From Escherichia phage KarlGJung, in sequence record MZ501089: a stretch of 64,000 nt of DNA; one strand, given 5' to 3'. Below the pieces are notes generated by a model. The model was not told the origin of the DNA and ran no database searches. It worked only from the letters and a program-made list of their open reading frames with translations. A program made the translations under genes and the position numbers. Positions 2,989 through 47,023 of the stretch are shown here, in pieces. How positions within the stretch are numbered: position 1 is the stretch's first letter; each line of letters begins with the position of its first letter.

Positions 2989-3213
2989 TTAAAATTGTGT
3001 TTTGCGACTAAATTGTTCATAGTGCTGAATTACCTCTCTCAAACACTTGCATGTGAATGAAAACTTTTTAGCTACACCACATTCAAATATATGTTCTCTT
3101 AAATCACGTGTGTCAGTATATCCCATCTCAACAATAAAATGTCTTATTAGATTTTTATCTTTATCATTGAGAGAATTAAAATAATCGGATTTTGAATTAA
3201 TTTCCCTGGCCAA
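2989..3213 (-). CDS. Hypothetical protein, 74 aa
   Basis: Track ORF on early strand in the arn-motA interval. Confidence 0.4.
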   Translation of the reverse strand: MAREINSKSDYFNSLNDKDKNLIRHFIVEMGYTDTRDLREHIFECGVAKKFSFTCKCLREVIQHYEQFSRKTQF

Positions 3214-3493
3214 ATTGAATCACCTTCAGTTGACGTTTTAGTTCTTTTATCATTTCTTCGTTCATCGCAATATAAAGATCGCGTAAAGCAGGTTTTAACA
3301 TTCCATTTACTGGAGAACTAAATGGACATACATAATCTTTTCCTACGAGCTTTTTGGTGAATTCCATATCACAGAACTGAAATGCCGGTTCATTGGCATA
3401 AATTCCCCAATTAGTTGACATCATTTTATTGGCATATTCCAACGCCTGGATTTGATTCTTAATTCCATCAATTTGAAACTTTTTAATATTCAT
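3197..3493 (-). CDS. Hypothetical protein, 98 aa
   Basis: Track ORF on early strand; stop overlaps next start. Confidence 0.45.
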   Translation of the reverse strand: MNIKKFQIDGIKNQIQALEYANKMMSTNWGIYANEPAFQFCDMEFTKKLVGKDYVCPFSSPVNGMLKPALRDLYIAMNEEMIKELKRQLKVIQFGQGN

Positions 3494-3954
3494 TAGTAAA
3501 GGTCCTCAGAGTAAAGTTCTTTTTCACTACCACCGCGTTCAATACGTACTTGTCCGGCGTAAGTTGCAATAATCATTGCTTCTTCACGTGTCCAGTAATT
3601 GCTATACTGATCAATAAACCCTTGGTCATCATCACAAACTTGCTGAGTAACTAATTGGGGTTTAACTACATCTAAAACTTCTGCCATATCTTTAGAATAA
3701 TGACGAGCACCTGGAATAACAAGAGTTCGTCCATCTTTTAATTTAAAACGGTTGGCGGCACAAACAATTCGTCGTTGATACTTTTGGTTTTCATCCCAGT
3801 ATGCGGTCTGCCAACAGATTTCAGGAACTTCTTTTAGAATATCTTCTTCTGTGCATTTATAACCATGCGCTTTAAATTTTTCAACAAGACTTTCTGGAGT
3901 TTCACGACATAAAGGAACATTCAGCATTTTTAAACGATTAATAAATGGGTTCAT
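3493..3954 (-). CDS. Hypothetical protein, 153 aa
   Basis: Track ORF on early strand; stop/start overlaps with neighbours. Confidence 0.5.
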
Positions 3955-7771: not shown

Positions 7772-7987
7772 TTAATCGTCGCAGTCGACGCTCAATTCCC
7801 AAAACTCTTCTACGGTATAAGTTTCAGTATCATTTTCAATACAGAAACGTTCATTACTGTTATTTGCTAAAGTAGCATTAACTGTCATTTTTTCGCTAGT
7901 GCTCTTAAGAGGTGAAATACGAATTAACTGATCACCGTTATCTAAACAAAAAATTTCACCAACTTTTACATCTTTAAAACTTTTCAT
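7772..7987 (-). CDS. Hypothetical protein, 71 aa
   Basis: Track ORF on early strand. Confidence 0.4.
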   Translation of the reverse strand: MKSFKDVKVGEIFCLDNGDQLIRISPLKSTSEKMTVNATLANNSNERFCIENDTETYTVEEFWELSVDCDD

Positions 7988-8102
7988 AATTCACCTCAAG
8001 GAGTATAAAATCCAAACGCAGTTGTTGACCATCCCATCCAATATGGAAAATTTGCACCAATGTAAAACATAAGAATATAAAACCAACCGCTCAGCAAATT
8101 CA

Positions 8103-24027: not shown

Positions 24028-24510
24028 CTAGCGATAAAAACCAAAATAACGATTAGCTTCAATAATCTTTCTTTCTTCTTCAGATATTCTCCAGCGTAGT
24101 CCAACATCAAAATGAGCCCAGACCATCTTAACAAATGCATTTATATCTTTAATATCTTCAATAATGAATGTTTTACTTTTAGAAGGTTGACCTGCTAAAT
24201 TAAGTGCTAATTTAACTTTATCGTCTTCAAACAGGGCAAAAAGACCATATTCATGAGCTCTTTTATAGCCTTTAATAGTTAAAGCTTCAGAAGAAGAAAA
24301 CGGTGAATCAGTATTCTGTAAAATATCTTCAGTATGCTTTATAATTAGAATAACATTTTCTGGATATTTTCTTTCTTTTATATCTTTAATTAAAAGATCC
24401 GGATTTTCTGCTAAAGGAATAATTAATGAGCATTTTTTATCAAGTGCATTTACTGATTTACCTTCTTTAGACATAAATTCTATTGAATAATGTTTTGCTA
24501 CTTCAATCAT
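24028..24510 (-). CDS. Hypothetical protein, 160 aa (mrh region)
   Basis: Track ORF; ATG start. Confidence 0.4.
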
Positions 24511-24667
24511 GTGATTTCCTTTTGCCTACTAATGGGCCGTCAGGAATTTTGTTTTCCTGGATATATTTCTCATTTTCTTCCATCATTTTACTGCCAATTT
24601 TAAGAAGCAAATCCAGTGCTTCATTTGCTTTAGCCTTGGCCTCTTCTAGCGTCATATCTCTGTTCAT
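24503..24667 (-). CDS. Hypothetical 54 aa protein (below track cutoff)
   Basis: Hand-translated [54 protein letters not shown]; ATGA overlap upstream. Confidence 0.3.
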
Positions 24668-24867
24668 GATTTATCCCCATAGATATCTCTCATCAATTTA
24701 AGCGCTGAGCGTTCTAATTTCTTTTCTTTCTCAGCACTAATCATTGATTTCATCCATTCTTCTGATTCGTTCTGCATTTCTTTATTTGCTTGTTCAACCC
24801 AACCATCATCAATATACATCGAGTTTGGTCTATTGAACCATTCAAGCATCTTCTTCAGAGCTTTCAT
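24664..24867 (-). CDS. Hypothetical protein, 67 aa
   Basis: Track ORF. Confidence 0.4.
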
Positions 24868-25339
24868 TTGTTTTACCTAAAACAACAGTAGGAGCATCAT
24901 CAAATTCATGAATTTTGAGCAAATTTGGATGTAAACTATTCCATACAGAAGAAATAAAGTATGATAAAGCATCTTCACTCGCAATTATAAATTTATTTCC
25001 TTTATCTATTTTCCAACTATATACTGAATCGTACGAATAAAAAGATAAAGGTTTATCATTATATTGTTCTGCGCTAACATTAATGTATTCTGATTTAGTA
25101 AATGCTTCAATTGCTCTAAACGGAATATTTGGTACAGTTTCAATAATACCAATCTTTTTAAGTTTTATTTCAGCATCTTCTGGAACTGGCATTGAAACGA
25201 AATTTTCTACGAGATACATTGGGTCACAATAACCCTTATCAATCATTACTGCTACAGTAATTGGAACATCTTTAGCAAATGACAAACTATTACTGCTAAT
25301 ATACATTTCAAACAAAATCGCTTCCATAATTTTCCTCAA
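24842..25339 (-). CDS. Hypothetical protein, 165 aa
   Basis: Track ORF. Confidence 0.45.
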
Positions 25340-25677
25340 TCACAAGATGTAGATGAACAACTAGAATCACAAGAACTTCCACATGAATCGCCCGTCCACA
25401 CATGAACAGGAACATTAGTATCATATGAATCAGAACTAGACTGTGTATTCTGCGTATTAGATGATGTAGTAGGTGTTGACCAGCGCCAAGGATTTTTATA
25501 ATATTCTTGGGCTTCTTCATAAGTCATAGTAACTGCTTCTACTGTTCCATCTCCCATATAAACATACTCAACTACAGTTAAAGGAAGGTAGTCATTTGAA
25601 ATAGGAACTACACCTTCTCCGGGAGTTGTAGAGAAAAAATCTGTAAAGAAACTTTTAAACCAATTAAAGATAAACAT
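25336..25677 (-). CDS. Hypothetical protein, 113 aa, with Ser/Cys/Asp-rich C-terminal tail
   Basis: Track ORF; tail [19 protein letters not shown]. Confidence 0.45.
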
Positions 25678-25883
25678 TACAAAAAGCCTTTCTTGAATTC
25701 GACTTGCTTCTCACCATAATCATATCGAATTTCTGCATTAAATTCGACAGAACCATCTGCGTACATCATAAATGAATGCACAACAACTTCTGTAGACCAT
25801 GGTTGTAGTTCATATTTCTTCATTACGTGTCGTGAAATGATAATATCTAAATCTTCATTCGGTTTAATCCAACGATTTAACAT
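25677..25883 (-). CDS. Hypothetical protein, 68 aa
   Basis: Track ORF with early promoter upstream. Confidence 0.4.
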   Translation of the reverse strand: MLNRWIKPNEDLDIIISRHVMKKYELQPWSTEVVVHSFMMYADGSVEFNAEIRYDYGEKQVEFKKGFL

Positions 25884-25909
25884 AGCGCTCTCCTCTATAA
25901 GATAATTCT

Positions 25910-25939
25910 ATTATACCATACTCATTTTGGAAAGTAAAC
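25910..25939 (-). promoter_or_regulatory. Early promoter (GTTTAC-N18-TATAAT)
   Basis: gtaaac 25934-25939, attata 25910-25915. Confidence 0.5.
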
Positions 25940-25953
25940 CATTTAAATGAAAA

Positions 25954-25975
25954 AAGGACTCCCGAAGGAGTCCTT
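25954..25975 (-). terminator. Intrinsic terminator downstream of soc
   Basis: aaggactcc-cgaa-ggagtcctt; mRNA continues ttttcattt. Confidence 0.6.
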
Positions 25976-25981
25976 GAATTA

Positions 25982-26227
25982 TTAACCACCAGTTACTTTC
26001 CACAAATCTTCGTTTGCAGCAATCCATTCAGTACGCTGATTTTCTTCATATACAGTAGTATATGCTGCTTTTTCTGAAGGGAACGTCTGGTAATGAGCAC
26101 CAGAAATTTTGTGAACGTCAGAATAAAGAGGGAAAGCTACTGAAATTTCCTTTCCTTCAATTTTCTTATTTCCATCTAATTTCTGCTCAAATGTTTTGAT
26201 ATTAACATAACCGCGAGTACTAGCCAT
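25982..26227 (-). CDS. soc: Small outer capsid protein Soc
   Basis: 81 aa MASTRGYVNIKTFEQKLDGNKKIEGKEISVAFPLYSDVHKISGAHYQTFPSEKAAY... Confidence 0.9.
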   Translation of the reverse strand: MASTRGYVNIKTFEQKLDGNKKIEGKEISVAFPLYSDVHKISGAHYQTFPSEKAAYTTVYEENQRTEWIAANEDLWKVTGG

Positions 26228-26295: not shown

Positions 26296-26814
26296 TTAAT
26301 AACCTCGGTCTTGACGAACGAAATTTTCAGCATTTTTCAGATAATAAAGTTTAAAGATTTCTTCTGCTGTAAGACCAAGACCTTGAAACATGTTCAGAAC
26401 AAAATGGAGAATATCAATCATTTCGAATTTGATTTCTAACTGGTCCTGTGGAGACAAATCAGTAATCAGAGTTTCACGACGTTCACCATGCTGAGCTTTC
26501 CACGGCTTCCATACAGCAGATGCATCTTTTTCGCCATTGCTCATACCACCAAGAGAAGTCAGAAGTTCGCGGAATTCATCATCAATATAATCTTTCTGAT
26601 TACGCAGCCAATCAACAACTTCACCTGCAGTAGCCAAATCATCAGGATGACGGTTATATTCAGGTTTATCTTTAGCTAAACGAATCTGCAGAGATTTCTG
26701 CATGTCAAGCATTACCTGCAGCGGGTCTTTTTCATCACCGAGAATATCCCAATATTCATTTTGAGCTTTATCAGCGCCTTCGATCAGTTGACTACATTCG
26801 TTAAAGTAAGCCAT
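26296..26814 (-). CDS. 56: dCTP pyrophosphatase gp56
   Basis: Track ORF 26296..26829 (TTG) trimmed to ATG: MAYFNECSQLIEGADKAQNEYWDILGDEKDPLQVMLDMQ... Confidence 0.85.
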   Translation of the reverse strand: MAYFNECSQLIEGADKAQNEYWDILGDEKDPLQVMLDMQKSLQIRLAKDKPEYNRHPDDLATAGEVVDWLRNQKDYIDDEFRELLTSLGGMSNGEKDASAVWKPWKAQHGERRETLITDLSPQDQLEIKFEMIDILHFVLNMFQGLGLTAEEIFKLYYLKNAENFVRQDRGY

Positions 26815-31996: not shown

Positions 31997-32341
31997 TTAA
32001 AAGAATTTAAATTTTTTCTTTGACCTTTTATTAAATGCATCTTGTAGTTGCATTGTAATACATTTTTCTACATGAGGAGCTAACTCAGCTTTTCTTTCTT
32101 GGTCAAGAACAGCAAAGTCCATTACGACTTTTCCATCAACCCAATCTAATTTTGTCACATACACAATGTGTGTAGAACCGTCTTCTAGTTTAATGACAAT
32201 CTCCTGGATAACATTTTCCATGGCAGATTTAATTATCTTAAGAGATTCATTAAAAAGACGTTCTTTTCTTTCTTCTTCCCCCTCCGAAGAGGGGGATTCA
32301 TCGATAATTTCTAGATCTAAATCTAAATCATCTTTATTCAT
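31997..32341 (-). CDS. 40: gp40 (head-assembly-associated protein)
   Basis: Track ORF 31997..32359 (GTG) trimmed to ATG overlapping the uvsX stop; 114 aa MNKDDLDLDLEIIDESPSS... Confidence 0.55.
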   Translation of the reverse strand: MNKDDLDLDLEIIDESPSSEGEEERKERLFNESLKIIKSAMENVIQEIVIKLEDGSTHIVYVTKLDWVDGKVVMDFAVLDQERKAELAPHVEKCITMQLQDAFNKRSKKKFKFF

Positions 32342-33515
32342 TAAATTCTTCCATATCACTTAGCTGATCTAGGTCAGTTTCTAAATCAGCAGCTGATTTA
32401 CTTTTACTTTCTGGAGATTTAAATTTTTCAACCTTTGAGTTAATCAATTCATCAACTTCAGCTTCAACAATTTCATTACTATCAATAGCACCTAACTGAT
32501 AAGCACGTTTAATAGCATCTCGGAATGGTTGATGCTTAAATAAAGGACCCCAGAATGTAGTGCAGTTGGTATCTTTTGCACGCCAAGATTTTTCTTCGCG
32601 AATCATCTCACCGGTTTCTTCATCAAGAAATTCACGGGCATACCAGCCATTTTTAGGTTTTACTACAAATCCTAATTCTAGAGCCATATCTAACAATCCA
32701 GAATAAGGATCGATACCACCGTCAAATTTAACATCAATAAAGAATTTACTTTTTTCTTTAACGGTACGAGATTTTTCTACATTTAGAACAAATTGATACC
32801 CCTGAAGATCAGAACCATCTTTAATTTGACGTTTACCGATAATGAATACAGTATCAGCCGAATACATTACGCCTGTACCGCCTGTCATCACGGTTTTACT
32901 AAACATTTCAATTGTTTCAATTGTATGGTTAACCGCAACGCACGGAATATTTTTAATGCTAAAGTAAGGAGTAACAATACGGAATAATGACTTCAGTGAT
33001 TTAGCACGAGTCATATCTGCCACAGATTTTTCATTCAAGGCATCTTCCGTTTCTTTCTTAGAAGCCATATTACCAATTGAGTCGATGAATACTATAACCT
33101 TTTCACCACGCTCAATAGCTTCAAGCTGATTCACCATATCAATTTTCAGCTGTTCAACTGATTGAATTGGCGTATGAATTACACGTTCCGGGTCAACTCC
33201 CATGGATCGCAAATAAGCTGGAGTAATACCAAATTCGCTATCATAGAATAGACAAACCGCGTCAGGATATTTGTTCAAATATGCCGCAACCATAGTCAAA
33301 GACATATTTGATTTAAAGTGTTTAGAAGGCCCTGCGAAAATAGTTAAACCAGACTGCATACCGCCATCAATCGCACCAGAAATAGCAATATTAAGCATTG
33401 GAATTTTTGTACGAATTACATCCTTTTCATTAAAGAATTTAGATGTAGTCAGTTCAGCAGTCATTTTAGAAGTGGAAGCTTTAATCAAACGGGATTTTAA
33501 ATCTGCAATAGACAT
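32334..33515 (-). CDS. uvsX: UvsX recombinase (RecA-like)
   Basis: 393 aa MSIADLKSRLIKASTSKMTAELTTSKFFNEKDVIRTKIPMLNIAISGAIDGG...; Walker A GPSKHFKS. Confidence 0.9.
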   Translation of the reverse strand: MSIADLKSRLIKASTSKMTAELTTSKFFNEKDVIRTKIPMLNIAISGAIDGGMQSGLTIFAGPSKHFKSNMSLTMVAAYLNKYPDAVCLFYDSEFGITPAYLRSMGVDPERVIHTPIQSVEQLKIDMVNQLEAIERGEKVIVFIDSIGNMASKKETEDALNEKSVADMTRAKSLKSLFRIVTPYFSIKNIPCVAVNHTIETIEMFSKTVMTGGTGVMYSADTVFIIGKRQIKDGSDLQGYQFVLNVEKSRTVKEKSKFFIDVKFDGGIDPYSGLLDMALELGFVVKPKNGWYAREFLDEETGEMIREEKSWRAKDTNCTTFWGPLFKHQPFRDAIKRAYQLGAIDSNEIVEAEVDELINSKVEKFKSPESKSKSAADLETDLDQLSDMEEFNE

Positions 33516-33592
33516 TCATTTTTTCCATAGGCATCATTATATTTTCCTCACTGGTTAAAGATAGAGTAATTATAACACAATAAATTTAGGCA

Positions 33593-34435
33593 TTAATCAA
33601 CTGCTATTGGATGAATAGCATTAAACTTATGAAATGCTTCTGATTTTTCTTTGCGCGAAACACACATGCGAAGAACCTTTAATGGCTCGTCTTCTTCACC
33701 CAACGATTTTCGTTTTTCGATATTAGAAGTTTTCCAACGAGCTTGCTCTGGAAACTCTCTATTGATTTGCTCAAGCGCTCTATTATGTTTAGAATTACTA
33801 CGAATTGAACTGCACCCGCCAGGAGCTTGTGCTTTTCCAGATACAACCAGATATTTGAACAAGGCCAAATGCGGATAACCTTGATTAATTAAATTGAGAA
33901 ATGCATACATATCTTCGCATAAATCAATTTTTCCATACCCAATTTGTTCTGTCGTAAGTTTTCCAAGGTCATACCATGTATTCGTGAATCCATATGAATT
34001 TTCACGATAATTACCCCAAGATGAAGTAATTTTAAAAATTGGTAGGCGAGCATGACCGTGATAATACCCACAATCCATGGCATCTTCGACGTATTGAATC
34101 AATTCATAGAACTGTTCACGAGTCAATTGATTGACTTTATCCACACAACGACGATCATCTCTTTTTCGCATTGAACTCATACGAATAGTAGTATCATCGT
34201 CAATCATCCAGATTCGTTGACCTGCATACATATCAGTAATTGCTTTACGAGTACCGGCAATTCCGTTTACATCATCAGGAATAGTTATAATTTTAGCTCT
34301 AGACCCATAGGCATCATAATAAGCTTTTTCTTCATGTTCACGCACTACAATATGGGGTTCATAATCAGTCGGAAACATATCAAGGGCAGAAACTGCCCCG
34401 ACACGCTGATAACTTGGAATTACGAATTGAATCAT
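33593..34435 (-). CDS. GT-A-fold glycosyltransferase in the beta-gt locus (candidate hmC-DNA sugar transferase)
   Basis: Track ORF 33593..34441 (GTG) trimmed to ATG overlapping the gp42 stop (ATGA); VIPSYQR N-terminal motif and IWMIDDDTTIR DxD motif; 280 aa. Confidence 0.55.
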   Translation of the reverse strand: MIQFVIPSYQRVGAVSALDMFPTDYEPHIVVREHEEKAYYDAYGSRAKIITIPDDVNGIAGTRKAITDMYAGQRIWMIDDDTTIRMSSMRKRDDRRCVDKVNQLTREQFYELIQYVEDAMDCGYYHGHARLPIFKITSSWGNYRENSYGFTNTWYDLGKLTTEQIGYGKIDLCEDMYAFLNLINQGYPHLALFKYLVVSGKAQAPGGCSSIRSNSKHNRALEQINREFPEQARWKTSNIEKRKSLGEEDEPLKVLRMCVSRKEKSEAFHKFNAIHPIAVD

Positions 34436-35172
34436 TTCCACTCACCTTTATAGTCTTTTTTCACAATATGAGTTTCGCCAGTATTCCACCAATGATCAAC
34501 CAAGTAAAAATGACGAGAATATACATGAAGACTTCCAACATTCCATATAATAGAACCTGCTTTATACTGACGAGTTGAATCGCCTGCATTCAAATCAGAT
34601 ACTAATTTATCTAATACGTATTTTTGCCATGCATAATCATTACGGAATCCGAAGACCACGTCATTTGAGCGCATGCTTACTACTGCATTGACTTTCTTAT
34701 CACGAATCAGGTACTGTACTGTATTAGTACACATGAAATCTGACATACCATCTTTATTGTAGTCAAATTGCATGGATGGACGAGTATAAATCATGATACC
34801 ACGTCGAGAATCAGGATTTTGACCAAGTTCAGCTAAACACATATCATACTGGGCATAGTTATCTTCTGACCAGATAGCCCAGCCATAATTCGAGTTAATT
34901 TCACCTTTAGAAGATGCTACTTGTTGCCAAATCTTCGGTGTTTCACCCGGAATATCTTTAACGAACAAGCTCTTAGATTTATACCATTCAAGTTCACGCT
35001 GAATGTATTCATCATTAAGAGCGCCAAAAATAAACGGTTCATCTGCTATAAATGATGCGCCAATAATTTCAATAGTTTTAACGCCAGTTTTATCAACTAC
35101 GAAATCTTTTTCTTTTAATGCAAGCCCCAAATAAAGACGGATTTCTTCAACTGTCATAGAGTCACTAATCAT
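34432..35172 (-). CDS. 42: dCMP hydroxymethylase gp42
   Basis: 246 aa MISDSMTVEEIRLYLGLALKEKDFVVDKTGVKTIEIIGASF... Confidence 0.9.
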   Translation of the reverse strand: MISDSMTVEEIRLYLGLALKEKDFVVDKTGVKTIEIIGASFIADEPFIFGALNDEYIQRELEWYKSKSLFVKDIPGETPKIWQQVASSKGEINSNYGWAIWSEDNYAQYDMCLAELGQNPDSRRGIMIYTRPSMQFDYNKDGMSDFMCTNTVQYLIRDKKVNAVVSMRSNDVVFGFRNDYAWQKYVLDKLVSDLNAGDSTRQYKAGSIIWNVGSLHVYSRHFYLVDHWWNTGETHIVKKDYKGEWK

Positions 35173-35325
35173 TTAAACCTCAATTGATACATTCATATTT
35201 AACTTGTAACAGTAATAAACCCCAGCCTAAAATAATAGTTGGAATCATAAGAGGAACCGTTACACTATAGTATATACTTATTATAATCATCAAGATTAAA
35301 AGCAACACTGCTATAATTTTGCTTT

Positions 35326-35577
35326 TCATTCCTTCTCTCTGATGATAATTACCTGATTTGGTTGTGCAGACTTTTTAGTTTCACCCGCAATTGACCAAAT
35401 AAATGTAATAAACCAACCAATAATTGACCAGTTAAACAGTAAAGATGTGAAAAAGATTCCTATTGTCGATTTTGACCCACGCATCAAGGCGATAAACCAT
35501 GGAAGCATGTATATAATAATAGCCAACACACCTGAAACTAAAACCATAAAAATTGAACCTGCTACTAAAGTTTCCAT
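35326..35577 (-). CDS. imm: Superinfection immunity protein Imm
   Basis: 83 aa two-TM protein METLVAGSIFMVLVSGVLAIIIYMLPWFIALMRGSKSTIGIFFTSLLFNWSIIGWF... Confidence 0.8.
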   Translation of the reverse strand: METLVAGSIFMVLVSGVLAIIIYMLPWFIALMRGSKSTIGIFFTSLLFNWSIIGWFITFIWSIAGETKKSAQPNQVIIIREKE

Positions 35578-35584
35578 GTTTTCC

Positions 35585-35965
35585 TCACTTAGTCAAATTT
35601 TTTACACATGAATTATAAGAATTCACTACATACTCCATCGGAGCATTTTTACCGGTACGCCATTGGTAATTATTAGCCCAATTAGCCCAAATTTCGGCGC
35701 AGTAGTTTTCAATTTTTTCTTCGCGTGTAATTACATCAGAATTACGATATGCTTGAGCAGATTCATCTGGACGAATAGCTTCGTCAAAATTCGCCTGCAT
35801 TTGTTCTACTGTCTGTTTTGGAGCTTCTTTATAACACTTGACATTAGGATTATAAAATTTGCTTGAACAATTTACAATTTTTCCTACATCAGACTGATTT
35901 ACTACCGGTCCTTGAGCTACACAACCAGTAAGACCTAATGCAATAACCAAAATAGCGATTTTCAT
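35585..35965 (-). CDS. Putative lipoprotein, 126 aa (imm.1 position)
   Basis: Signal peptide/lipobox MKIAILVIALGLTGC. Confidence 0.5.
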   Translation of the reverse strand: MKIAILVIALGLTGCVAQGPVVNQSDVGKIVNCSSKFYNPNVKCYKEAPKQTVEQMQANFDEAIRPDESAQAYRNSDVITREEKIENYCAEIWANWANNYQWRTGKNAPMEYVVNSYNSCVKNLTK

Positions 35966-35975
35966 AATAATTTCC

Positions 35976-36212
35976 TCAAATGCAAGTAGTAATTACTCCA
36001 GTAGTGCTTATGCAGGTATTACCCATTTGCACACCTAAAGATCCATTTGTATTCACATGAAGATTATCATCAATTTTAACTGATATTTTACCATTAGTGT
36101 GAATAACGGTGCTAGATTCAATCACAGGTTGAGTATCATTTTCAACACTAACAAATGGAACTGCTGCTAATGCAACTAAACAAACTGCTAAGCATCCCAT
36201 AACAATTTTCAT
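35976..36212 (-). CDS. Small secreted/membrane protein, about 78 aa
   Basis: Track ORF 35976..36224 (TTG) trimmed to ATG; signal-like MKIVMGCLAVCLVALAAVPFVSV. Confidence 0.4.
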   Translation of the reverse strand: MKIVMGCLAVCLVALAAVPFVSVENDTQPVIESSTVIHTNGKISVKIDDNLHVNTNGSLGVQMGNTCISTTGVITTCI

Positions 36213-36246
36213 TTTATTCTCCAAATCCGTATTAGTTGATAGTTGT

Positions 36247-36276
36247 ATAGTACCATGGAAGAACAGTCTTGTAAAC
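36247..36276 (-). promoter_or_regulatory. Early promoter (GTTTAC-N18-TACTAT)
   Basis: gtaaac 36271-36276, atagta 36247-36252. Confidence 0.55.
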
Positions 36277-36362
36277 AGTTTTGTGAAAATTTTTTAGGGA
36301 ATTCTAAAGGTCCAGAATCATCTGTTTTTCATAAGTATAGATTTATATTACTTGTATGAAAA

Positions 36363-36380
36363 AGGGACCCGGAGGTCCCT
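36363..36380 (-). terminator. Hairpin/terminator downstream of gene 43
   Basis: agggacc-cgga-ggtccct; mRNA continues ttttcat. Confidence 0.55.
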
Positions 36381-36392
36381 AGATTTATTCTA

Positions 36393-39089
36393 TCAGCCAA
36401 ACAGGAAGTCTAACGAAGCTTTTTCTTCATAGTCCATGCCAGCCGATTCACACATACCCGCAAGCGGTTTAACAAACGATTTTTGGAACAAAGTTGAGTA
36501 GTCAATCCAAGACAGTACGTCAGAACGAATTTCTTTTGGAAGTTCTGTACCCGACGGCCAAGCAATGCATTTGTCACCAAATGGATTTCCTTCACGCAAT
36601 GGAAGAACCATTACTTTATTTCCATCCAAAATTGGAGCTACACCTAAACCGCTAACAGCTCGACGATAAGTTAGCACACCACGAATATGGAACGGACATT
36701 TAAATCCTGGCCAACCTTTATCATCATATTTCGCTATATCGTTCGCAGTTTTTACTTCAGCAATAACTTTATAGTCAAGTTGACGATATTCTTTCTCGAA
36801 GTTCTTGTAATATTCTTGGACAGACTCTTCACCTTCCTGAAGAATACGACGAATACTTTCTTCGAGAGCTTCTTGGACCGCTTTAGGCGTTGAACTCTGC
36901 TGAGTTTCCATACCCATGATTTTTAGATGTGGTTCAGCAAAACGCTTATCTTCCATATCATAAACGTTCAGAGCATAACGCTTTTTCGCTTTCCAAAATC
37001 CACCAACGCCCTTTGAACCAAGTGGAGGGCAAGAAATAGCTTCACGGTCCATATGCATCAGATGCTCGCGGTTATTCATATAATCACATAACTCACGATA
37101 TGCAACATCAATCATAGGTTCCATCTTTTTCTTACCGAACTGATTCATAAATTCAACCAAATCGTTCTGCTCTTTGAATCGGTCAAGACCAACTTTTTCA
37201 ATAACTTTATCTACACAAACATATACCGAATCAGTATCACCTGCTGCGATGAAATCTTCGCCATTAGTTCCACATACTTTATTCAGATACTCATTAATTT
37301 TACGAGCAATCCACTGAATACCAACTTGGCCGAAAATTGTGATAGCAGTAGCATTTCGCAAATCATAGTAACGGAAATGAATATTACCAAGAGCACCATA
37401 AAGGCTGTTAATAAGAATTTTACGGTTCAGCTGATTTGTATTAGCAAGTGTAGCCGCTTTTTCACATTCTTCAATCAAACTATTGAGAACAGATTCAGTA
37501 TAATTCGATAGTTCATTTAAGAAATCATCACTGAACTTAACATATCGTTTAACTTCAGGTTTAGTTGAACAAGACCCTGCGCCTTTCATAATAATCTTTT
37601 TAATAGCTTCGGCATTCATTTCTTCAGCGAACATTTTCTTTTTCCAATCTTTACGCTGGAAAAATACTTTAGCGATTTCCTTTGGAATGATACCTTCTTG
37701 ATGCTTATCATACATCCATCCATTCGGAGAACAAGAATATTCATCACTCGGTTTAGGAGCTGTTCCTGCGATATATTCATGAATTGGATGAACTTTAAAC
37801 TGACCACGAATAGTCTCAGGACTAATGTTAACCTGACGAATAATGCTAGGATACAGAGACGTCAAGTCAAAACTCATAATATATCGACGAGCAATTGGTT
37901 TAGGTTCAAACACAAATGCACCCGGAAAACTTTGTTTAACGTGCGAACCTTGTTGAGGAATAACCTTATGTTCACCTTTCAATGAGTTAAAAATAATAGC
38001 ATCCCAAGTTTTAATAGGACTCATTACACCGGAAAAAGGCATTTTAGCGTAATAAGACATACTTAAAACTAGATCGATAAACCCGCGAATTTTATCAATT
38101 GCTTGAACTGATTCTACGTCAATGATGTTATAACTGATATATCGTTGATGATTAGTCTCACGAAGTTTATTAATAGGACCATCGTACGGTAATTTACCTT
38201 TTTTGGTTTCATGCTGAGCAACTGATTCCAAAGAGAATGACGGCAAATTAGTAAATGCGAATTTCTTATACAAATCTAAATAATCAAGAATAGATACGCC
38301 ATCAATAGAATAAATTTCTTTGCTACCGTACATATTTTGAATTAGTTTAGATTTTACTCGACCGATTGGAGAGAAGCGTTTCATACTACGTTCACCGAGA
38401 ACCATTTTAACACGATTCATGATATACGGAACGTCAAATCCCTCAATATTCCAACCAGTAAAAATAGCAGGTCGTTTCTGTTCCCAGAGATTAATATATT
38501 CCATGAGCATATCACGCTCATTATCAAATGGCATATAAATTACTCGGTCAAGAATTTCTTGAGGAACTTCATCACCACCTTCACAGTCAAGCTTAGCAGC
38601 TAACTTTGCATCCCATTTTGATACTGAACCGTACATTGAATTCAAAAGGTCGAAAACATAAAAACGATCATCAATTGAATCGTAATGAGTGATAGCATCA
38701 ATTTCATATTCAGCTTTCATTGGGTCAGGAAATTTATCACCAGTAACCTCAATGTCACAGTTAGCTACACGAACAAATTTTCGGTCATAAACAATTTCTG
38801 AACCATACGTATCACTGATATAAGCGAGTTTAAAATCGTTCATACCGAGAGCTTCGAGACCGATGTCTTCCATTCGCTTCATCCAATCTCGAGCATCTTT
38901 CATTGATGGAAATTTTTGAGGAGCGCAATTTTTACCATAGATGTCTTTGTACTTTGACTCTTCCTTACAATGTCTAAACATAGTTGGAAGATATTCTACT
39001 TCGCGAGTACGTTCCTTTCCATTTTCATCAATATAACGTTCAACAATGTTATTTCCGACTGTTTCGATAGAGATATAAAATTCTTTCAT
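36393..39089 (-). CDS. 43: DNA polymerase gp43 (family B)
   Basis: 898 aa MKEFYISIETVGNNIVERYIDENGKERTREVEYLPTMFRHCKEESKYKDIYG...; exo motifs FDIET-like, pol motifs DTDS. Confidence 0.95.
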   Translation of the reverse strand: MKEFYISIETVGNNIVERYIDENGKERTREVEYLPTMFRHCKEESKYKDIYGKNCAPQKFPSMKDARDWMKRMEDIGLEALGMNDFKLAYISDTYGSEIVYDRKFVRVANCDIEVTGDKFPDPMKAEYEIDAITHYDSIDDRFYVFDLLNSMYGSVSKWDAKLAAKLDCEGGDEVPQEILDRVIYMPFDNERDMLMEYINLWEQKRPAIFTGWNIEGFDVPYIMNRVKMVLGERSMKRFSPIGRVKSKLIQNMYGSKEIYSIDGVSILDYLDLYKKFAFTNLPSFSLESVAQHETKKGKLPYDGPINKLRETNHQRYISYNIIDVESVQAIDKIRGFIDLVLSMSYYAKMPFSGVMSPIKTWDAIIFNSLKGEHKVIPQQGSHVKQSFPGAFVFEPKPIARRYIMSFDLTSLYPSIIRQVNISPETIRGQFKVHPIHEYIAGTAPKPSDEYSCSPNGWMYDKHQEGIIPKEIAKVFFQRKDWKKKMFAEEMNAEAIKKIIMKGAGSCSTKPEVKRYVKFSDDFLNELSNYTESVLNSLIEECEKAATLANTNQLNRKILINSLYGALGNIHFRYYDLRNATAITIFGQVGIQWIARKINEYLNKVCGTNGEDFIAAGDTDSVYVCVDKVIEKVGLDRFKEQNDLVEFMNQFGKKKMEPMIDVAYRELCDYMNNREHLMHMDREAISCPPLGSKGVGGFWKAKKRYALNVYDMEDKRFAEPHLKIMGMETQQSSTPKAVQEALEESIRRILQEGEESVQEYYKNFEKEYRQLDYKVIAEVKTANDIAKYDDKGWPGFKCPFHIRGVLTYRRAVSGLGVAPILDGNKVMVLPLREGNPFGDKCIAWPSGTELPKEIRSDVLSWIDYSTLFQKSFVKPLAGMCESAGMDYEEKASLDFLFG

Positions 39090-45804: not shown

Positions 45805-45822
45805 AAAGGGCCGAAGCCCTTT
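45805..45822 (-). other. UUCG-tetraloop hairpin overlapping the agt stop codon
   Basis: aaagggc-cgaa-gcccttt. Confidence 0.5.
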
Positions 45823-47023
45823 ATTTTGTAATAATGTCAAACTGTTCTTTAAAGCAGAAGCTTGAATCTTGATGCTGATACAAAAATTCATATGCTTTTT
45901 CACGCTCACGGTCATAAAGAGCTCGGTCAGATGACAGTTCTTTAATACGTTCAAATGTTGATTCCATATCATTTTCATCAAACCAAATGATACCGCTATC
46001 ATGCGAGGTCAAAGGAGTATTATCAACACGGAATTTTAAATTTTCGCCAGTAGATTTCCAAAATACCGGAATTGTTCCACATGCACCAAGCTCGAGATGA
46101 GTATATTCTAAAGAGCGCTGTAGATATTTTTTATCCAACTTACTCAACTGATAACCAAATCCGGATTTACTCATACGTTCAAGCATTTCGCTATTTACAT
46201 AACGATCGAGAATTTGCGTTGGTAAATTAGGAGCAATTTTAATTTGGTCTACTTGATGAAGACGATAATACTCGTATGGAATTCCTTTTTCTTTAATAGG
46301 AATGAACGCTGGAGAACGTTCCAGACCTTCCATAATAGTACTTAGTCCTGCAGGTTTAAGATGTTTTTCGTGAAAATCAAACATCTGATAAAAACCTTTC
46401 CATGTAGTCGTACGACCAATCCAACGGTTGACATTCATGTTAATTTCAGAAACATCTTTCCAGTAGGTTGACCGAACCTTCGCAATATCCATAGGAGGCT
46501 GAAAGTTATATACGGTCGGCGCTTCTTCAATATCATCAAACAGAGAAACAGTTTCTGGATACCATTCTTTCATCAGAACTTTATTAAAATCACCATTATC
46601 AGAATGGCTAAAAATAACATCAGCTCGACTAACAGTTTCTTCTAATCCCAAATTTCGACGCAAAGAAAGAGAAGAATGGTCATGTTGATAAACTACAACA
46701 CGAACCGAAGGTTTAATGTTATCAATAATTTTTTTATAGTTATTAATAGTGTCTTCTTCAACTGAAGTAGCAGGAACTGAATTGATAATTAGAATATCAC
46801 AATCATTTACCAGCTTAAGTGTTTTATCGTATTCTTTTGCCAATAAAACCGGAATTGAAAATGATTTATAATCATGTGCACAGTTACGAGTAAATGATTT
46901 ATCTTTAGCATAAACCAAAGTTACTTCATGACCATTTTTAATAAACCAATCACGTTGCTCGAGCGAGAATTTTGTTACACCACAACCTTCAAGACCTCGA
47001 GCCATAAAAATACATACTTTCAT
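45821..47023 (-). CDS. agt: DNA alpha-glucosyltransferase (hmC alpha-glucosylation)
   Basis: 400 aa MKVCIFMARGLEGCGVTKFSLEQRDWFIKNGHEVTLVYAKDKSFTR... Confidence 0.9.
   Translation of the reverse strand: MKVCIFMARGLEGCGVTKFSLEQRDWFIKNGHEVTLVYAKDKSFTRNCAHDYKSFSIPVLLAKEYDKTLKLVNDCDILIINSVPATSVEEDTINNYKKIIDNIKPSVRVVVYQHDHSSLSLRRNLGLEETVSRADVIFSHSDNGDFNKVLMKEWYPETVSLFDDIEEAPTVYNFQPPMDIAKVRSTYWKDVSEINMNVNRWIGRTTTWKGFYQMFDFHEKHLKPAGLSTIMEGLERSPAFIPIKEKGIPYEYYRLHQVDQIKIAPNLPTQILDRYVNSEMLERMSKSGFGYQLSKLDKKYLQRSLEYTHLELGACGTIPVFWKSTGENLKFRVDNTPLTSHDSGIIWFDENDMESTFERIKELSSDRALYDREREKAYEFLYQHQDSSFCFKEQFDIITK

Follow-up and report, generated by a model that had tools for sequence, protein, structure and literature searches.

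The host defences that a T-even phage can evade are determined by the sugar pattern on its 5-hydroxymethylcytosine (hmC). In this work, we ask which glycosyltransferase is encoded between uvsX and gene 42, the slot occupied in T4 by the beta-glucosyltransferase gene (beta-gt), in Escherichia phage KarlGJung (record MZ501089), of which a stretch of 64,000 nucleotides, hereafter the window, was analyzed. A first-pass annotation, made from the sequence alone, had proposed a GT-A-type enzyme, preferably the second glucosyl transferase of the T2/T6 type, possibly one adding a different sugar. To the preferred reading, that is a T2/T6-type beta-glucosyl-HMC-alpha-glucosyltransferase (ba-gt), together with the corresponding pathway and the prediction of T6-like DNA, we assign a probability of about 95%.

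The open reading frame and its borders

Both the list of open reading frames and the raw sequence contain an intact minus-strand ORF of 843 nt, corresponding to 280 codons plus TAA, with the ATG at 34435-34433 and the stop codon at 33595-33593. The main features of the ORF and of its 5' border are:

33593..34435, minus strand: ba-gt (ggt, TAGT) coding sequence, 280 amino acids plus TAA, beta-glucosyl-HMC-alpha-glucosyltransferase
34432..34435, minus strand: ATGA overlap between the ba-gt start and the gene 42 stop (TGA), seen in the sequence
34442..34447, minus strand: Shine-Dalgarno-like AGGTGA, 6 nt 5' of the ba-gt ATG, within the 3' end of gene 42

The N-terminal sequence of the protein is MIQFVIPSYQRVGAV, and residues 76-84 read WMIDDDTTI. 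An alternative GTG, two codons 5' of the ATG, would produce a protein of 282 aa; ATG is the start in every annotated ba-gt orthologue. The overlap of the ATG with the gp42 stop codon, already pointed out in the first-pass annotation, is indeed found at bases 34432-34435, and the same 4-nt ATGA is conserved at every orthologous locus inspected, namely those of PYPS2T, T2, RB14, T6, YUEEL01, EL, CP and BGP. From this arrangement we infer, reasonably in our opinion, that ba-gt may be translationally coupled to gene 42, and AGGTGA is a candidate ribosome-binding site. Comparison with the T2 allele reveals 25 nucleotide differences, 23 of which are synonymous, indicating that ba-gt is a real, expressed gene under purifying selection.

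A promoter scan of the 32200-36500 region yielded 15 promoter-like sites, against 17.2 expected from shuffled sequence, hence no excess; terminator-like sites were 5, against an expectation of 2.3 +/- 1.3, which is not striking. One of the sequences flagged as terminator-like is a 7-bp GC-rich hairpin, GGGGCAGTTTCTGCCCT, located on the minus strand at 34383-34399, within codons 13-18 of ba-gt and 36 nt past its start. The hairpin, shared with T2, T6 and RB14, has no evident function and was given no weight because it lies inside the coding region.

Identity of the protein

The ba-gt protein matches ACP30685 of RB14 at 100% identity. When aligned, as the first-pass annotation had suggested, with the T2 (AP018813) and T6 (MH550421, AP018814) enzymes, it features 99% amino acid identity to them. 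It matches PHROG 842, "beta-glucosyl-HMC-alpha-glucosyltransferase", over residues 1-275 (E 6.4e-89), and the Pfam family PF20691 (TAGT, TET-associated glycosyltransferase) with a score of 38.9 bits, the gathering score being 27.5; in the latter match, residues 3-207 correspond to positions 2-205 of the 205 in the profile. These results support the T2/T6-type second glucosyl transferase preferred in the first-pass annotation. Identity, family, fold, motifs and synteny are all observed in the present analysis.

No substantive difference separates the gene from those of T2, T6 and RB14, which share its length, its slot, the ATGA overlap and the alpha-gt partner. The protein lacks the changes private to T2 (R11H and P251S), as well as those private to T6 (Y40N, D55G and R106H, plus either an amber codon at Q10 or the loss of one Asp). 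By megablast, 474 GenBank phage records contain ba-gt at at least 90% nucleotide identity and full coverage; many of them are labelled beta-glucosyl-HMC-alpha-glucosyltransferase or beta-alpha-glucosyltransferase, while some carry the label "putative beta-glucosyltransferase". ba-gt is thus an already known and ordinary part of most T4-like coliphage genomes. The T2 and T6 ba-gt genes were reportedly cloned by Winkler and Rueger in 1993 (Nucleic Acids Res 21:1500, reference 87 of PMC11946311). The deletion phenotype of the T6 orthologue, the contrast between GT-A and GT-B folds and the synteny with T4 beta-gt have likewise all been published.

Neighbourhood and pathway partners

The 25 kb around ba-gt share 97.3-97.4% identity with many Tequatrovirus genomes, JB75, Shinka and YUEEL01 among them, and the gene order of the window is the same as in these genomes, gene for gene. 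As judged from its sequence, the window is an ordinary segment of a T2/RB14-like T-even coliphage, extending from the rII region to beyond nrdD. The genes relevant to the present analysis are:

34432..35172, minus strand: gene 42, dCMP hydroxymethylase, for the hm-dCMP precursor; PF00303, 98% amino acid identity to the annotated YUEEL01 gene, synteny with T4, T2 and T6
32334..33515, minus strand: uvsX recombinase, downstream flank; PF21134 and PF00154, 100% amino acid identity to YUEEL01 uvsX
45821..47023, minus strand: a-gt, DNA alpha-glucosyltransferase, for the alpha-glucosyl-hmC acceptor of ba-gt; PF11440, E 3.4e-236, profile positions 1-355 of 355
26296..26814, minus strand: gene 56, dCTPase, which keeps unmodified dC out of phage DNA; tblastn with the annotated YUEEL01 dCTPase, 98.8% over 172 of 172 amino acids
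26875-27654, minus strand: Dam methyltransferase; PF02086

Pfam, tblastn and the T4 layout agree in placing ba-gt, as had been proposed, between uvsX and gene 42, in the slot of T4 beta-gt. This location, directly 3' of gene 42 and 5' of uvsX, is the same in T2, T6, RB14, PYPS2T, YUEEL01, EL, CP and BGP. The spacer between ba-gt and uvsX, 77 nt in length (33516-33592), includes TGTTATAAT; in T4 the homing endonuclease gene segA lies between beta-gt and uvsX, whereas the window has no insert there. The alpha-gt noticed in the first-pass annotation is confirmed at 45821-47023 by a match to the full length of PF11440, and its product is identical to the a-gt of phage CP in 399 of 400 amino acids. 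alpha-gt thus co-occurs with ba-gt, and no T4-type beta-gt was found in the 64-kb window by tblastn.

Fold, motifs and catalysis

Relatives of the protein were collected down to 28% identity and aligned (alignment A2). The two sequence motifs on which the GT-A proposal had been based are both found within the 280-aa ORF, at residues 6-11 and 79-81:

34403..34420, minus strand: IPSYQR motif, codons 6-11; P7, S8, Y9 and R11 invariant in alignment A2
34193..34201, minus strand: DDD motif (DxD-type), codons 79-81; invariant in alignment A2

Within IPSYQR, conservation is highest at R11, which 14 out of 14 distant relatives retain while Y9 and Q10 vary in these sequences. The DDD motif is also invariant in 20 full-length relatives from viral contigs and in 19 out of 19 distant relatives; neither DDD nor R11 changes in relatives down to 23% identity. 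D175, part of an E174-D175 pair, is invariant in the alignment as well.

The AlphaFold2 model is of moderate confidence overall (mean pLDDT 72.5, pTM 0.73), with a well predicted N-terminal half of alternating strands and helices and three loops, residues 131-150, 203-211 and 244-251, falling below a pLDDT of 50. In the model D79-D80-D81 directly follow the strand formed by residues 74-79, so that the DxD motif comes after the fourth beta strand, as in GT-A enzymes. A fold search with the model returned GT-A enzymes, not GT-B ones. As modelled, ba-gt has a single Rossmann-like nucleotide-diphospho-sugar transferase (GT-A) fold.

A sequence search of the PDB returned only chance matches (E >1), with no related solved structure among them, and for this reason catalytic residues can only be inferred. 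By analogy with GT-A enzymology, DDD would hold a divalent metal and the diphosphate of the UDP-sugar, and by analogy with GT2 enzymes the catalytic base would be an invariant acidic residue, probably D175. Formation of a beta product from UDP-alpha-glucose implies an inverting mechanism, consistent with a GT2-like GT-A enzyme.

The TAGT family features, like ba-gt, a GT-A fold and a DxD motif; it has been described as a sister group of GT2, transferring glucose onto alpha-glucosylated hmC in T2 and T6 (PMC13216743). The modest score of 38.9 bits places the T-even enzymes on a divergent branch of this family. A TET/JBP dioxygenase is absent here, since hmC arises from gp42 at the nucleotide level. 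Cellular GT-A enzymes of the GT2 family, such as TarP (6H1J), the cellulose synthase BcsA and AvpGT, share only 6-15% sequence identity with ba-gt and act on polysaccharide, teichoic acid or lipid, in contrast to ba-gt, whose acceptor is a DNA-borne sugar.

About 70 C-terminal residues of ba-gt (residues 208-280, 33596-33814) fall outside the Pfam TAGT domain. This stretch has a high content of K, R and E and is kept among T4-like homologues, with F228, P229, E250 and R256 invariant; it is a possible DNA- or partner-binding extension.

Proposed glucosylation pathway

What is said here on donor, acceptor, linkage and deletion phenotype comes from published work on orthologues. On this basis, gp42 and gp56 would lead to the presence of 5-hydroxymethylcytosine in place of cytosine in the phage DNA, and alpha-gt, a GT-B enzyme, would attach an alpha-linked glucose to about 75% of the hmC. 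The ba-gt of the window is predicted, by analogy with its orthologues, to use host UDP-glucose for the addition of a second glucose, in beta-1,6 linkage, to the first glucose of alpha-glucosyl-hmC DNA, which would produce gentiobiosyl-hmC (PMC6024577; PMC13216743, with the papers of 1961-62 cited in the latter). Tequatrovirus phages having both a-gt and TAGT do contain gentiobiosyl-hmC, and no beta-glucosyl-hmC, by LC-MS (PMC13390438).

Loss of the ORF had been expected to alter the DNA modification and, for the T6 orthologue, this is indeed the case, since T6 lacking ba-gt contains only alpha-glucosyl-hmC (PMC11078745). The deletion mutant shows increased sensitivity to Brig1, of which the mutant DNA becomes a substrate (PMC11078745). 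The BapA deglucosylase similarly acts on DNA of T6 deleted for g-gt, but not on that of wild-type T6 (bioRxiv 10.64898/2026.02.25.707755). Gentiobiosyl-hmC is resistant to both the Brig1 glycosylase, in vitro, and BapA (PMC11078745; bioRxiv 10.64898/2026.02.25.707755), but DNA containing it is still cleaved by enzymes of the GmrSD family, such as BrxU (PMC13390438).

Predicted modification pattern of the phage

In the Durham phage collection, DNA of phage CP was found by LC-MS to contain about 2/3 gentiobiosyl-hmC and 1/3 5-hmdC, with a trace of the alpha-glucosyl form (PMC13390438). CP differs from the window only at V30A in ba-gt and only at S132R in a-gt. More differences are seen with phages EL and BGP, where hmC, alpha-glucosyl-hmC and gentiobiosyl-hmC occur at about 1:2:2, gentiobiosyl-hmC being about 40% (PMC13390438): 7 ba-gt residues differ from either phage and 34 a-gt residues from EL. 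Because a single residue separates each glucosyltransferase from its CP counterpart, virion DNA is predicted to be T6/CP-like, with about 2/3 gentiobiosyl-hmC, about 1/3 bare hmC and very little mono-alpha-glucosyl-hmC. The ratio is the least secure step of the prediction, because near-identical enzymes give very different amounts of gentiobiosyl-hmC, as in T2 and T6, where its share is 5% and 72%, respectively (PMC6024577, PMC13390438).

The gene places the phage in the common class of Tequatroviruses having alpha-gt and TAGT, which is useful for annotation and for the choice of restriction and defence assays. A third transferase might be encoded in the genome beyond the 64-kb window; one of 753 surveyed phages contains all three transferase types (PMC13216743).

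Among Durham Tequatroviruses, Dam is found only in those having the lower (1:2:2) gentiobiosyl pattern (PMC13390438). A relation between Dam and a lower gentiobiosyl fraction does not hold here, as the window contains Dam along with alleles matching those of CP, a Dam-less phage with a high gentiobiosyl content. Dam presence and transferase alleles are thus not linked.

Alternative readings

Genomic position and some of the GenBank labels ("putative beta-glucosyltransferase") are all that would favour a diverged T4-type beta-gt, of the GT-B fold and GT63 family, an identity which is rejected by every search performed. BLASTP of ba-gt against T4 beta-gt gave an E of 2.2 or worse; PF09198 did not match ba-gt even at E 10, although the positive control, T4 beta-gt, scored 325 bits; and no match was found by tblastn of T4 beta-gt against the whole 64-kb window. 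Similarity to T4 beta-gt, the finding which the first-pass annotation had regarded as contrary to its proposal, was therefore detected neither by BLASTP nor by PF09198 nor by tblastn. Its remark that T4 beta-gt is longer and of a different fold class holds true, the lengths being 351 and 280 aa and the fold search having returned GT-A enzymes. T4 beta-gt (PF09198, GT63, GT-B; PDB 1JG7 according to PMC13216743) is in fact unrelated to ba-gt in both sequence and fold; it lies 23 nt 3' of gene 42, with no overlap, and is followed by segA, while ba-gt overlaps gene 42; and its acceptor is bare hmC rather than alpha-glucosyl-hmC. What the two enzymes have in common is the slot 3' of gene 42, the UDP-glucose donor, the beta linkage and a post-replication DNA substrate. 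An arabinosyltransferase of the RB69 type is also rejected, since BLASTP against the ORF003c candidate gave an E of 1.1 or worse; no similarity was found by BLASTP with ORF052c, from the RB69 sugar cluster. The arabinosyltransferases of RB69 and other Mosigviruses are, like ba-gt, phage DNA glycosyltransferases responsible for mono- or di-saccharide adducts on a modified cytosine (PMC6024577, PMC13390438), but differ from it in locus, sugar and base, 5-hydroxycytosine instead of hmC. The earlier reservation that a different sugar might be added is thus very unlikely to apply, ba-gt being unlike ORF003c and one residue away from the CP enzyme.

Two further readings accept a TAGT enzyme at this locus, and both appear highly improbable. 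One holds that the enzyme is inactive or weak, leaving the DNA mainly mono-alpha-glucosylated, as in T2. Lesions are indeed common in sequenced stocks (R11H in T2, the Q10 amber and the change of DDD to DD in T6), one metagenomic homologue is frameshifted, and close relatives differ widely in how far the second glucosylation proceeds (PMC13390438). The allele of the window, however, is full length, keeps all invariant residues (R11, DDD, D175 and the others) and coincides with the consensus and RB14 protein, one conservative substitution away from the CP enzyme, for which about 2/3 gentiobiosyl-hmC has been reported (PMC13390438). Even less probable, if only by a little, is a different specificity, whereby the enzyme would transfer another sugar, or would act on bare hmC and functionally replace T4 beta-gt, whose exact slot it occupies. 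TAGT enzymes are diverse, occurring with alpha-GT, with beta-GT or alone, and must therefore span more than one specificity (PMC13216743). Nevertheless, the protein is 100% identical to that of RB14, 99% identical to those of T2 and T6 and one residue away from that of CP, and no RB69-like sugar-nucleotide pathway genes are found near ba-gt. Moreover, phages having this pair of enzymes contain alpha-glucosyl-hmC and gentiobiosyl-hmC but no beta-glucosyl-hmC, and about 1/3 remains as unmodified hmC (PMC13390438); the residual hmC argues against an action of ba-gt on bare hmC, which would leave none.

In the corresponding region of RB69 (NC_004928; positions 24047-26213 of locus L047) a thymidylate-kinase-like gene and two small ORFs of unknown function lie between uvsX and ORF048c, the gene 42 homologue. 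This interval contains no glycosyltransferase; a sugar-pathway cluster is found next upstream.

Lesions in the T2 and T6 reference alleles

Within ba-gt, all seven T2 GenBank records, as well as SV76, feature an R11H change (CGT to CAT), located in T2 AP018813 at codon 11 (positions 8093-8095 of locus L003); the equivalent codon of the window, 34403-34405, encodes R11. The 60-nt stretch surrounding codon 11 in T2 has an exact match in no record beyond T2 and SV76, and RB14, the nearest relative, differs from it precisely at the R11H base. All other relatives examined, down to 23% identity, keep R11. The two independent T6 records are affected in different ways: in MH550421 a CAG to TAG change produces an amber codon at Q10 (positions 7951-7953 of locus L002), and the CDS is annotated as starting from M20, while AP018814/NC_054907 lacks the amber codon, but has lost in frame one Asp of DDD (around positions 1035-1043 of locus L045).

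The T6 lesions may be either stock mutations or sequencing errors, and point to departures from wild type in some laboratory stocks or in their sequences. In T2, R11H may account for the presence of only about 5% gentiobiosyl-hmC, against 72% in T6. If R11H is a strong hypomorph, the long-quoted difference between the two phages would be explained, and high gentiobiosylation, predicted also for the phage analyzed here, would be the natural state of Tequatroviruses having alpha-gt and TAGT. That the window contains the undamaged, wild-type form of ba-gt, the damaged alleles being those of the textbook reference phages, is a tentative view, to which we give slightly less than an even chance. Neither R11H nor the T6 lesions were found discussed in this sense in the recent papers covered here. 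The lesions matter to those using these stocks or sequences as modification standards, including T6 as a standard for gentiobiosyl-hmC.

A damaged gene was also observed in IMGVR_UViG_2974573174_000001, a T4-like viral contig of 172 kb, where a ba-gt homologue having 62% identity (positions 3001-3821 of locus L022) carries a frameshift after about 25 codons and retains an ORF of only 49 aa.
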